This document shows positions 21,906 to 41,434 of a stretch of 64,000 nucleotides of DNA, one piece after another. How positions within the stretch are numbered: position 1 is the first letter of the stretch; every line of letters starts with the position of its first letter. Under the pieces are notes generated by a model. That model worked only from the letters and a program-made list of their open reading frames with translations. It did not search any database and was not told the origin of the DNA. The DNA comes from Felis catus (taxonomy: Eukaryota): NCBI RefSeq assembly GCF_018350175.1, contig NC_058368.1:91204001-91268000 (forward strand), in the 5' to 3' direction. Made by a program: the position numbers and the translations under genes.

Positions 21906-23377
21906 TCACGTATGAGTTCTCTGATGTCGTGTAAGGTTTGTACTCCGACTGAAGGCTTTTCCACATTCATTACACTGATAGGGTTTCTCTCCTGTATGAG
22001 TTCTCTGATGCACAATTAGGGATGAATTCTTAATGAAGGCTTTCCCACACTGATCACATTCATAGGGTTTCTCACCAGTATGGATTCTTTGATGTTCAAT
22101 AAGGTATGCACTCTGGCTGAAGGCCTTTCCACATTCATTGCATTCATAAGGTTTCTCTCCAGTATGAATAACCTGATGTACAGTAAGGGAAGATCTCCCA
22201 GTGAAATGTTTTCCACATACCATACATTCATAAGGCTTCTCTCCAGTATGAATTCTCCGATGTTGAGTAAGAGATGAATTCTTACTGAAAGCTTTCCCAC
22301 ACTGATTACATTCAAAAGGTTTTACTCCAGAATGAAGTCTCTGGTGTTCTATAAGGTATGTGCTTTGGCTAAAGGATTTCCCACATTTGTTACATTTGTA
22401 GGGTTTTTCTCCAGTGTGATTTCGTTGATGCAGGGTAAGAGTTGAGCTTTTACTAAAGGCTTTCCCACATTCACTACACTCATAGGGTTTTTCTCCAGTA
22501 TGACTTCTCTGATGTACAATAAGATGCATGCTCTGACTGAAGGCTTTTCCACATTCATTGCATTCATAGGGTTTTTCTCCTGTATGAGTTCTTTGATGCA
22601 CTGTAAGATTCATGCTTTGGGTAAAAGCTTTCCCACATTCACTACATTTGTAGGGTTTCTCTCCAGTATGAATCCTTTCATGTTGAATAAGGGATGAATT
22701 TTTACGGAAAGCTTTTCCACACTCTTTACACTGATAGGGTTTCTCTCCAGTATGAGTTCGCTGATGAACAGTAAGGTTCATGCTCTGACTGAAGGTTTTC
22801 CCACATTCATTACATTTATAGGGTTTCTCTCCAGTATGAATTCTTTGATGTACAGTAAGGGAGGAGCGTTCAATGAAGTGCTTCCCACATACATTACACT
22901 TATAGGGTTTTTCCCCAGTATGAATCCTCTGGTGCTTAAGAAGAGATGAGCTCTGGCTGAAGGTTTTCCTACATTCATTACATTCATAGATTTTCTTTCC
23001 AACAAACATACTTTGAGTTTTAATTAATTCAGAATTCTGTTTAGTGTCTTCTTTATGTGGATTCTGATTATGGGGCCTCTTTCCCACAGGGATACTTTGT
23101 TTTATATCAAGGATTGACCCCTGACTAGAACATCTTGCAAATTCATTACCTCCACATGTCCTCCTCTCAGTGAGGGTTTCTTCATGAGTAACTGACACTT
23201 GCCCCAGAGGTCTATCCTGGTTTTTCTGTTGCCCATCTAACCAATTATCAGGTTCCCAGGTTTCCCCTAAAGAAGAATGCCAGAGACCTTCCCTTTCCAT
23301 TATTACCCCATAAGCTATATCTTCAGTAGTATTAGGCTTTATAGTTGACTCTTTGGTTTCAAGTCTTGTCTTCCAAT
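21906..23377 (-). CDS. ZFP2: ZFP2 last exon: linker plus 13 C2H2 zinc fingers
   Basis: ORF 21906..23405; acceptor tttttttcag|AT at 23378/23377; [21 protein letters not shown]... matches the recalled human ZFP2 N-terminus; 13 fingers with TGEKP-type linkers. Confidence 0.95.
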
Positions 23378-25420
23378 CTGAAAAAAATAAAAAATTCAAA
23401 TGCACATTGGTTTCTGTGCTGGGAAACTAAAAACTGTATAAGGTGGGAATAAGAGAATGAAACTGTGAATAACTATAGGGCACATGTGAGAGCTTTCAAA
23501 GATGTCCCTACAACTGGGAAGAAAAACATAGGGAAGGAACAGTGAACCAGTCCATAAATAACAGGAGAACGAGAGGAGGTGGTAAGCACAGAAAAGAGTG
23601 AGCCTATGTATACAGCAGGGATGGACACTGAAATCACTGACCACTGGACAAGGCTGAATAATGAAGATGCAATGAAGGGAAGTATACAGACAAGCTGGGA
23701 TTGGGGGGGGGGGGGGTGCGGGAAGCAGATCAGAAAGCCCTGCCACATTGTACCTGGTATTTCCACCAGCAGTTTCTTCTCTCCTGAAATGCTGTTTCTA
23801 GTTCTGACGCTAAATCTTTGTATAACATCACAGTGTGACACAGCAAAAGATTATTGGCTCTGGAGTCAGACATACTTGGGTTTAAAGCCTAGCTATTAAC
23901 TTACCATTTTAACTAGTTATTTGATTCTCTGGGTTTCAGTTTTCACAGATAAAAAATAAAAATAATATGATGAGGATTAAGTAAGATAATGCACATAAAC
24001 TACCCTTAGGGAATATGCTTGTTTGGAACATAAAATACCACAACCTACTTGAAATTAAAGGGAGAATGACACAACGTAAGGGTTATCCCCCACTCCCACC
24101 AACTTTCAACAGGCTATAAGTTTCTCATTCTCTTTAGGTAAGAGGGGCTGAAAGGGCTCTACCCTTTCCTAAATATCCATTCCTTAAAGATGTGAACTGG
24201 TGTCAGGGAAAGGCAAAGTAGGATCTGTTGAGCTGCTTGAGATCAGGCTAAAAGGAAGGACCTTGTGGCCACTAAGACTTTATTTTCTCAGAACCCACTT
24301 CTTATCCTAGACAAAATGGCCTGGGACAATGAGAGCAGAGGACAGGAAACTACAAACTGAGAATCAGTTGTCAGCTTGACCAAAATTACCAGAACCAAGA
24401 TCAATACTGAATCAACAAACCAAAGGCCTGTGGGCAGGAGAATTTACTATGAAGCCTGAGGTATGCACTAACTGGACCTCCTCCTTATAACCTCACCTGC
24501 TTACACACACAAAAAAGAAAAAAAGTGGAAAGCCACACAGGCTCTACTTCTAAAACACACACACCACCAAGTAACCCCAGAAAGGACTTATCTGAGTGTG
24601 AAATACCAACAGGCAACACATGAACTGCCTCCTACCCCACTTCACTATCCTATCCTATCCAGCTGTCCAACTAAAGCTCTTTGAGAACAAAGTGCTACCC
24701 AATAAACAACATAAAGGGCAAAGGAGGATCCATTCACACTTTTAGACAAATACAAACTCCAGACAGAACTGCCCTCAAAGATAAATGATACAGAAAACAT
24801 ACCAAATTTGGAAACTATGTAGAGGTTCAAAGGCATCAAAAGAAAGAAAACAGGAAAAACAGTGACATACTGGGAGGAGATCTTTGCAACACCTGGCCCA
24901 TACAGTACTAGGACCTAGATTTATAAAACATAACACTAAGCCTGCCACAAAAATGGGGAAGAGACTTGAATAGGCACTTAAGAAAAGGAAACCATAATGG
25001 TGAGTAAACTAGCAAAGATACCCAATCTCAACAGTAACCAGGGGAAGGCTGATTAAATGCCAGTGAGATATGATTACCACATACACCTGAGTAACAAAAT
25101 GAAAAAATACAGACTGATATCTTCAGATTTTAGCAATGTGCTGTAATGGGAACTTTCACATGCCACTGGTGGGAATGCAGTTTGGTTCAGATGTTTGAAA
25201 AAGTTTAGCACTACCTAGTAACTTAGAACAGGTACAAAGACTATGATTTAGCAAACCCACTAGTAGGTACATACACTTAATCTACCTTGCAAAGGTATAT
25301 CACAATTCGTAAGTTTTAAGGTAACATTGTACACAATAGCAAAAATGGAAACAACCCAAATGCCCACCAACAACAGAATAACTAAACTGTCAAACACATA
25401 TAACAGTAGAAATCAGGGAA

Positions 25421-26011
25421 TGTTAAGGATTTCATGTTTGTGTCTCCTCAGAATTCATGTGTTGAAGCCTAATCCCCAGTGAGATAATACTAAGAGGGCC
25501 TTTGGAAGTCATTAAGTCATGAGGGGAAAGCCCTTATAAGAAGTGACACACACGGGGCGCCTGGGTGGCTCAGTCGGCTAAGCATCCAACTTCAGCTCAG
25601 GTCATGATCTCACAGTTTGTGAGTTCAGGCCCCACATCGGGCTCAGTGCTGACAGCTCATAGCCTGGAACCTGTTTCAGATTCTGTGTTTCTCTCTCTCT
25701 GCCCCTCCCCTGCTCACACTCTGTGTCTCACTCTGTCTCTCAAAAAATGAATAAATGTTAAAAAGAAAATTAAAAAAAAAAAAAAAAAGTGACACACACA
25801 ACAGAGCCTGCCTCCTCTATCTCTGCTCTCTATCACAGGAGGATGCAGTGAGAAGGCAGCTGTCCATGAGCCAGGAGGAGGGCCCTCACTGGAAACCCAA
25901 TCACACTGGCCCCTTGATCTCAGACTCCCAGCCTCTAGGAACTATGAGAAACACTTGGTGTTTAAGACACCAAGTCTATGGTATTCTGTTATAGCAGCCC
26001 CAACTACGACA
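25421..26011 (+). mobile_element. MaLR LTR (MLT1A-like) interrupted by a Can-SINE (25554-25788, TSD aagtgacacaca)
   Basis: aattcatgtgttgaagcctaatcccc ... ggtattctgttatagcagcc. Confidence 0.8.
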
Positions 26012-26365
26012 GTGAACATTAACAATAAGATATGTACATATAACAAAAAGATTGAATGAATAATTTATCTATACACATATATAGTAAGAGTCCAATTAAG
26101 TAAATGTGAAAAACAGACTAAACTGTATCATTTAGAGATTCCTTTATTGATGGCAGTACTGTAAAGAAAAGCAAGGAAAGGGAATTATCACCAAAGTGAG
26201 AACAGTAGTTATGTTCTGGGTGGAGGTAGGAGGATATAAATGGAGAGGTTCACACAAAGCATTCCTAAGATACTAGCAATGTTACAAATCTGGGTTCTAG
26301 TGTCTGGGTGTTTGCTTTCCTTATTATTCATTCATCTTTATTGTTATGAACTATAGAGAGAAGCA

Positions 26366-26560
26366 ACATGGCATAATGGTTAAGACAACTTTGGAGCCAG
26401 ACTACCTGGCTCCATTAGCTGTGTGACCATGTGCAGGTTATTTTTAACCTATCTGTGCTCCTGTTTCCTCATCAGTTAAATAGCACCTATTGCATAGTGT
26501 GGATGTAAGAACAAAAATTAGTTAACATTTACAAAGGGATTAGAAGCATATGTAGGTTTT
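26366..26560 (+). mobile_element. MIR
   Basis: ggcataatggttaaga...tagctgtgtgacc...gtttcctcatc. Confidence 0.75.
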
Positions 26561-40271: not shown

Positions 40272-40358
40272 TGCATGATTTCTTTTAGCTATTGGGACAC
40301 TGCTTCTTCCTAAGAAAGCTAGGAACATGCCAACTCTCTTATCAAAATTCCTCCTCTT

Positions 40359-40527
40359 TGAGCCAAAGCATAAGAAACTCTTAAAAACTGAGAACAAACT
40401 GAGGGTTGATGGGGGGTGGGAGGGAGGGGAGGGTGGGTGATGGGTATTGAGGAGGGCACCTTTGGGGATGAGCACTGGGTGTTGTATGGAAACCAATTTG
40501 ACAATAAACTTCATATATTGAAAAAAA
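40359..40527 (+). mobile_element. Young, extremely 5'-truncated felid-type L1 3' end
   Basis: gagcactgggtgttgtatggaaaccaatttgacaataaa plus poly-A; perfect 15-bp TSD aaaattcctcctctt (40344-40358, 40528-40542). Confidence 0.88.
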
Positions 40528-41401
40528 AAAATTCCTCCTCTTCTACCCCCATGCCTAGCATACACACAAACTCCTTCCTCCTTCCTGGCATTTGACCCCA
40601 AACTTTGTATCTGATTCCTTCTCACCACCAGTCACTGCCACATTTGCTCCACCAAGCTGGAATAATGCTAGGAATGCCTTACAGAGAGTACCTTTAACAT
40701 TCCAGTAACTACGCTGGGCACTTTCTACTTAACATTCTTTCATGTTTCAACAGACGCAGGAAGTACATATTATTAAACGAAATGAACCAGGTGAAATGCT
40801 TAAGAATGTCAAGTATGTAGCAAAGGATCAGTTAGTGTGGTTATTTCCATCATCCTCATTAGGAACTTCAGGGAAGTCAGGTTACTTATCCAAGACAATG
40901 CAACTATTAATGGTAGAGTCAGGATTTAATCTTGGGACACTTTAACTCCATCACAGAAAATCTTCTCCAATTATCCCTATCCAACCTTACTTCTCCCGGT
41001 TGCCACACTGATGTCCTCCTCCAGGTCTTGGGACACATACAGTCTTGGTACCTAGCCATACTTGTTCTTATTATCCTATTCACGTACGGTCATCATGACT
41101 GTATCTTGTAGAGAAGTGACTTCTTTTACGTTCCCTGAGAGTCCGTAAACCCTGTAAGTACCCAGACCAATTTTCATATGATTTTCGTTCCTTTTGTGAC
41201 CCTTGAGCGCCACCAAAAGCCCAGCAGTCCAGGGCTTCCAGCTGAATGAGGGCTTCCAGCTGAGGGACACTAATGGGGGATATGTGGGAAATTTTCAGAT
41301 TTAGAGATTTCTGTAGCCCTGTCCTCTGCCGTGAAGCCCAGGTACAGTATGGGAATAAGTAGTAGGGAGTAAGGGAGAGGTTTCAGAGAGAAGGAGCTTA
41401 C

Positions 41402-41434
41402 CTGAGTTCCCAGTGGCAGAGGCCGAGCAGCCAT
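41402..41434 (-). CDS. ZFP2: ZFP2 first coding segment (MAARPLPLGTQ); the exon probably extends to an acceptor at 41499
   Basis: gcaATGG Kozak context, 33 nt to CAG|gtaagc; polypyrimidine acceptor ttcttttccttccctcag upstream; same layout as ZNF454 exon 2. Confidence 0.78.

Follow-up and report, generated by a model that had tools for sequence, protein, structure and literature searches.

A conserved KRAB box at the cat ZFP2 locus, probably parted from its zinc fingers by splicing

Why does a KRAB box appear to be under selection across mammalian orders at ZFP2, though the annotated transcripts of this gene do not link the box to the zinc fingers? We analysed the locus in a stretch of 64,000 nucleotides (nt) of the Felis catus genome (contig NC_058368.1, positions 91,204,001 to 91,268,000; hereafter the window, whose own numbering is used below). 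Four minus-strand exons of 33, 127, 93 and 1472 coding nt (coordinates in Table 1), all with GT donors and AG acceptors, join into 1725 nt without internal stop, coding for 574 amino acids in which 13 C2H2 fingers follow the KRAB boxes and a linker. The phases fit the fused frame with or without the KRAB-B exon, the protein being 543 amino acids long without it. This four-exon KRAB-finger pattern is not due to chance, and the first-pass annotation of this DNA, which had proposed it, was right on exon sites, length and finger number. The join is a model built from DNA, and it omits a further exon (30294-30152) used by public felid records. With this exon taken into account, we think it probable, though well short of certain, that ZFP2 is an old placental KRAB zinc finger gene whose KRAB box is, as its main state, largely uncoupled from the fingers by splicing.

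The identity of the gene was addressed first. At all 13 fingers, the four-residue DNA-contact fingerprints are the same as in the human ZFP2 entry of Liu et al. 2014 (PMC3971581). KRAB zinc finger protein (KZFP) genes lie on the same strand on both sides of the window gene, and human ZFP2, also named ZNF751, is placed between ZNF354B and ZNF454 in the part of PMC2443715 that describes it, as a protein of 461 amino acids with 13 fingers and no effector domain. Within the last exon, 77 nt from its start, an internal ATG (23300) begins a KRAB-less frame of 464 amino acids, to be compared with these 461. The nearest two Atlas clusters both carry the ZFP2 name, with representatives of 461 and 509 amino acids (for each cluster, no more than three Pfam families are displayed), and the KRAB exons are letter-for-letter equal to two Prionailurus records. 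Judged from these sequence comparisons, the window gene is the ZFP2 orthologue and descends from a KRAB zinc finger gene. It shares with human ZFP2 the synteny and all fingerprints, and with both human ZFP2 and mouse Zfp2 a KRAB box at the locus; it differs in that an in-frame splice from its KRAB exons to the fingers is possible, whereas the annotated human and mouse proteins are KRAB-less. Both the ancestral KRAB state and the KRAB-less human and mouse annotations had been anticipated in the first-pass annotation.

The KRAB-A exon matches Pfam PF01352 with 76.4 bits (E 1.2e-21, cut-off 20.4), so that the domain can indeed be called intact; KRAB-A of the ZNF454-like neighbour, used as a control, gives 89.4 bits. 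The window KRAB-A also matches the solved KRAB structures of ZNF568 and ZNF93. The 93-nt exon has no Pfam match, and was read as a drifted KRAB-B. Felids fit 14 of the 15 KAP1-contact or silencing positions described in the relevant part of Stoll et al. 2022 (PMC9753469), the exception being Ile11, replaced by Ala. This change in the KAP1 contact core is one of five felid substitutions not found in any of 5 non-felid records. Tyr29 is lost in the KRAB of the spiny mouse (Acomys).

A search with the KRAB-A exon gave 9 matches among 40 candidates, of which 6 were orthologues; P0058, P0059 and P0066 (marsupial) are paralogues and were excluded from the orthologue count. With cluster members, 14 orthologous KRAB records were collected (felid 3, colugo 5, golden-mantled ground squirrel 2, spiny mouse 2, murid-like contigs 2), which have the start exon, KRAB-A and KRAB-B in common. 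Felid, colugo and rodent records begin with the same 11 residues. Compared with the window, KRAB-A has 37/42 identical positions in colugo, 36/42 in squirrel, 33/42 in Acomys and 32/42 in the murid-like sequence. In simulations of neutral drift, at five assumed distances, mean identities were 15-25/42 and the observed ones were reached in none of 400 runs at each distance; the 84-codon KRAB frame stayed open in 0-3 of 400 runs. In addition, murid-like KRAB-A (32/42) is better conserved than the mouse linker (68/130; Fisher p 0.007, the pieces coming from different murid records). By these measures, KRAB exons of ZFP2 are seen to be under selection in several mammalian orders.

Retention of the box had been proposed as a felid trait. 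This fails because colugo, ground squirrel, spiny mouse and a murid-like contig also have these KRAB exons intact, with boxes nearer to consensus and even higher Pfam scores (82.4-89.3 bits, against 74.6-76.2 in felids). KRAB boxes catalogued at the human, mouse and dog loci also contradict it: in the genome-built models tabulated by Liu 2014 (PMC3971581), ZFP2 is typed KRAB in human (AZx13), mouse (ABZx12) and dog (AZ). Likewise, human ZFP2 is among the 378 KZFPs of de Tribolet-Hardy 2023 (PMC10547255), with an age of 105 million years and the status 'no transcript', which in that catalogue stands for no transcript with both domains and applies to 15 of the 378, ZFP2 included. Mouse Zfp2 is absent from the supplement of an Ensembl-based KRAB census (Corsinotti 2013, PMC3579818), and there is no ZFP2 row in the supplement of Emerson and Thomas 2009. 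In human and mouse, KRAB is catalogued as boxes at the loci, but is absent from the annotated proteins. As to the integrity of the frame, KRAB-A is open across four non-felid lineages and broken in one contig, P0056, described below.

What, then, becomes of the KRAB frame? At the level of gene models, all 14 retrieved orthologous KRAB records are KRAB-only. In 3/3 felid and 5/5 colugo records, the frame ends in an exon at about 30.3 kb of the window: felid tails (P0060, P0061, P0068) match 30336-30178 with 94-100% identity, that of colugo matches 30292-30236 with 64-70%, and 0/200 shuffles are as good in both cases. Acceptor 30294 has 14/20 pyrimidines, and a donor GTAAGT at 30152, read from sequence only, would close an exon of 143 nt, which is not a multiple of three. 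Through this acceptor, the KRAB frame ends after 94 amino acids, in the frame used by colugo and squirrel. On the upstream sites of the first-pass annotation, the snow leopard model uses acceptor 30310 (98 amino acids) and the fishing cat model acceptor 30332 (136 amino acids), and the felid model tails differ in frame. The tail of both squirrel records has 23/28 residues in common with colugo, as counted by eye; alone, it maps weakly to the window (43/200 shuffles as good). In the tails of P0062 and P0063 (colugo and squirrel), these 23/28 residues are kept together with the same stop, more than a neutral tail would predict. The cat tail, read in the colugo/squirrel frame, ends after 10 residues.

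From these elements, the following path can be proposed. Transcripts would start at the CpG promoter and run through the ATG exon, KRAB-A and KRAB-B into the 143-nt exon, where the frame is stopped. The product would be a KRAB-only protein of about 94-138 amino acids (10.7 kDa with the strongest acceptor), which should, from its residues, still bind KAP1/TRIM28. The stop exon would be spliced on to the last exon, as is seen for the equivalent mouse exon, and ribosomes would start the finger frame at the internal ATG through leaky scanning or re-initiation, having passed several short upstream frames. The resulting 464-amino-acid protein without effector domain would correspond to the human and mouse annotation. 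If the stop exon were skipped, the product would instead be the fused repressor of 574 amino acids, or 543 without KRAB-B, so that inclusion or skipping of one exon would decide whether the finger array carries a repressor. As 3/3 felid records end the KRAB frame in the intervening exon, the species difference in effector output proposed earlier is only hypothetical, and the cat is not different in kind from rodents or colugo.

In spiny mouse and murids, KRAB and fingers are parted in other ways. The spiny mouse records read through the KRAB-B donor into the intron (0/200 shuffles as good). The tail of murid-like P0064 comes from an exon whose homologous stretch in the window is 27070-27032 (4/200 shuffles as good), and the N-terminus of the finger-bearing P0067 maps to 27030-27089 in another frame (13/200 shuffles as good). 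The P0064 tail and the P0067 N-terminus are two frames of one DNA (20/21 residues; best of 200 shuffles 15). P0067 also matches mouse Zfp2 translations in the supplement of Kauzlaric 2017 (PMC5363842), in which two mouse Zfp2 transcripts assembled from RNA-seq are marked 'KRAB domain N'. The leader of these mouse translations reads like shifted frames of the end of window KRAB-A and of the KRAB-B exon, ahead of the intervening exon and the fingers. Taken together, the two frames and the mouse translations show that a single mouse mRNA carries KRAB exons, intervening exon and finger exon without a common frame. Between the traces of KRAB-A and KRAB-B, the mouse rows of that supplement contain some 14 codons with a donor-like start. 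By eye, these codons look like a shrunken retained intron that shifts the boxes against each other.

Several points weigh against an uncoupling by splicing as the main state. First, in P0056, a contig of 923 nt, KRAB-B is spliced straight to the last exon, and skipping of the stop exon therefore exists. Second, one squirrel KRAB-only record is titled 'ZFP2 isoform X2', a name which hints at a longer, fused X1. Third, the felid, colugo and other KRAB-only records are gene models rather than proteomic data, and each of the three felid models has an acceptor of its own, two of these being poor in pyrimidines (5/20 and 7/20). Fourth, the read-through of Acomys and the different murid exon imply that the uncoupling is not due to one conserved exon throughout. 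Fifth, a stop codon located more than 50-55 nt before the last junction triggers nonsense-mediated decay (NMD). With the downstream junction set at the putative donor, the distance is 111 nt with acceptor 30294, 115 nt with 30310 and 23 nt with 30332; with two of the three acceptors, NMD should thus be triggered. NMD may thin the mRNAs made from 30294 and 30310, and re-initiation may shield them.

Finally, the count of 14/14 KRAB-only records is itself biased, since the database searched contains no full-length ZFP2 of any species and fused isoforms could not appear in it. A search there for near-length homologues with the linker gave 0/24 candidates, and exact look-ups of the 464-amino-acid frame and of the KRAB exon gave 0/2. 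Among representatives, 53 matches were found, about five of them ZFP2 fragments and the rest distant KZFPs, and an Atlas search with the KRAB-only protein returned generic KRAB clusters only. In sequencing runs, 20 matches to 32830-33330 were found, each with 0.98-1.00 of its words; the matches include the intron, and so carry no information on splicing. Two records, P0057 and P0078, combine a linker like that of ZFP2 with downstream fingers whose contact residues have changed, and are a diverged orthologue or a close paralogue. The leader of P0078 was tried as stop-exon sequence and not used (unanchored, 176/200 shuffles as good; anchored, 9/538 anchors as good).

Part of this evidence would fit a second explanation, in which the fused 574-amino-acid protein is the main form in cat and probably in many mammals, the 143-nt exon being a minor poison exon that leads to NMD, and the fusion having been lost in human and mouse. 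The same finger array would then repress in some species only, which is the idea of the first-pass annotation widened beyond felids. All junctions of the fused form are canonical and in phase, a fused repressor would be the simplest explanation for purifying selection on KRAB-A, and the dog orthologue is typed KRAB 'AZ' in a genome-built model (PMC3971581). In mouse, the box frames seem, by eye, to be shifted by the short segment between the boxes. No stop interrupts the 25 codons ahead of the internal ATG in any record that spans them (window, P0055, P0056, P0057, mouse and douc langur); neutral drift leaves them open in 39-164 of 500 runs, and the sample is biased because such records were found by virtue of being open. 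The direct splicing in P0056 also speaks for a fused form, but KRAB-A of this contig is itself broken, with a frameshift, the loss of Met33 and a probable stop. P0056 looks like a mammal with a lineage-specific loss of ZFP2 KRAB-A, in which KRAB-B is still spliced to the fingers. Against the fused form as the main product stand also the use of the stop exon in 3/3 felid records and the ZFP2-named Atlas representatives, which at 461 and 509 amino acids are shorter than it. In RefSeq-type felid records, the names given are those of KRAB genes and not of ZFP2 isoforms; these names suggest that this annotation contains no fused model. On the whole, we find a dominant fused form rather unlikely.

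A third explanation, to which we give little credence, is that the KRAB exons are fading, the KRAB-only frame serving as an upstream open reading frame that damps translation or triggers decay, with a jobless peptide and a drifting felid copy. Felids indeed have the lowest KRAB scores among the orthologues and five substitutions of their own, Ile11 to Ala included; their model tails run in different frames, Tyr29 is lost in Acomys, and P0056 is broken. An upstream reading frame, however, does not need the KAP1 contacts, and felids keep 14/15 contact or silencing positions in a frame that would rarely survive neutrally over 84 codons. The least probable alternative, with a slim chance only, is that the 30.3-kb exon is terminal. 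KRAB-only mRNAs would then stop within the intron, and the fingers would come from separate isoforms skipping KRAB-A; as the frame is not kept when the start exon joins the last exon, these isoforms would use the internal ATG. The KRAB-only products of felids, colugo and Acomys are annotated as genes of their own and no record supports the donor at 30152, but a perfect GTAAGT, of which the 9.4-kb intron has 2, closes the exon, the nearest downstream AATAAA is 1.3 kb away, and the equivalent mouse exon is internal.

The favoured reading, uncoupling by splicing, can be set beside known systems. In ZNF252 (Lorenz et al. 2010, PMC2865497), KRAB is described as intact and in frame in dog and opossum and as uncoupled in primates, where the KRAB exons include an additional one. 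That additional exon sits between KRAB-A and KRAB-B and is primate-specific, and the gene decays; in ZFP2, by contrast, the exon comes after KRAB-B, is common to cat and colugo (probably also squirrel), and both halves of the gene are conserved. KRAB-O proteins, as outlined in Corsinotti et al. 2013 (PMC3579818), have no fingers and reach DNA through other factors such as SRY. The predicted ZFP2 KRAB-only product likewise has no fingers and keeps the Asp-Val motif; unlike KRAB-O, it would share its locus, and perhaps its mRNA, with a conserved finger protein. Tadepally et al. 2008 (PMC2443715) report, in the section concerned, the loss of KRAB or SCAN by degeneration in single lineages, for example in dog ZNF192. 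P0056 resembles such a loss, but at ZFP2 the box is mostly kept, and it is splicing, not decay, that would part it from the fingers. Lastly, ZNF117, ZNF239 and ZNF83, for which PMC3951408 lists predicted polycistronic transcripts, share the 'no transcript' KZFP status of ZFP2; that paper names neither ZFP2 nor KRAB (0 occurrences). The upstream frames of these three genes might be KRAB-only.

Lineage-specific KRAB loss, KRAB-only proteins, predicted polycistronic ZNF mRNAs and KRAB-only products annotated under other names are thus already known. No paper on the ZFP2 KRAB or on the 30.3-kb exon turned up in a literature that covers few subscription papers; PMC6481875 and PMC9140126 name ZFP2, with nothing on its KRAB or stop exon in their accessible portions. 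What appears to be new is a conserved ZFP2 KRAB that would be uncoupled by a stop exon common to cat and colugo. If this is true, the stop exon accounts for the presence of human ZFP2 in the small 'no transcript' class, and 'KRAB-less' annotations can conceal a conserved upstream KRAB frame.

A more far-reaching proposal, which we offer as speculation and hold to be doubtful, is that ZFP2 works as a splice switch dating back to the split between carnivores and primates or rodents. In this scheme, one exon would determine whether a fused KRAB repressor is made or an mRNA with two frames, the latter giving a free KAP1-binding KRAB microprotein and an effector-less finger protein that would be a competitor of the repressor for its sites; murids would have rebuilt the switch with a different exon, and the other 14 human 'no transcript' KZFPs might behave in the same way.

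Table 1. Features of the ZFP2 locus and its neighbours (window positions).
Feature	Position	Strand	Remark
CpG-island promoter	43600..44500	-	CpG observed/expected 0.60-0.68 in 43001-45000
Likely non-coding first exon, donor at 44200	within 43600..44500	-	donor from sequence; exon limits inferred
Second first-exon candidate	near 43818-43696	-	colugo model N-terminus maps there, E 2e-10
Start-codon exon, ATG 41434, 33 coding nt	41402..41535	-	weaker in-frame ATG 87 nt upstream
KRAB-A exon, 127 nt	33191..33317	-	Pfam PF01352, 76.4 bits
Drifted KRAB-B exon, 93 nt	32843..32935	-	skippable with frame to last exon kept
Stop-bearing intervening exon, 143 nt	30152..30294	-	further acceptors 30310 and 30332; record tails map here
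Intron stretch homologous to mouse / murid-like intervening exon	27030..27089	-	no sign of cat use
Last exon: 25 open codons, internal ATG 23300, linker, 13 C2H2 fingers, stop	21906..23377	-	
Finger exon of upstream neighbour, ZNF354B-like	50623..52230	-	
Start exon (ATG 16014) and KRAB-A exon of downstream neighbour, ZNF454-like	13128..16014	-	internal control

Some variation around the KRAB exons was also observed. A tandem alternative acceptor at 33323, 6 nt upstream of KRAB-A, adds 2 residues and is used in felid, colugo and squirrel records; another at 32938, 3 nt upstream of KRAB-B, adds 1 residue and is used in felid, colugo and rodent records. The KRAB-B exon is skipped in one colugo isoform (P0069). 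In the 3' untranslated region, decayed finger remnants are found on the minus strand at 21850-21600, with a Cys-x2-Cys start and a His-Thr-Gly-Glu-Lys linker, indicating that the finger array was once longer. The upstream neighbour is presumably ZNF354B-like, a label given from synteny. Some 40 SINE-sized repeats are scattered across the window, and an open frame at 58408-58776 resembles what we take to be a LINE-1 endonuclease remnant.

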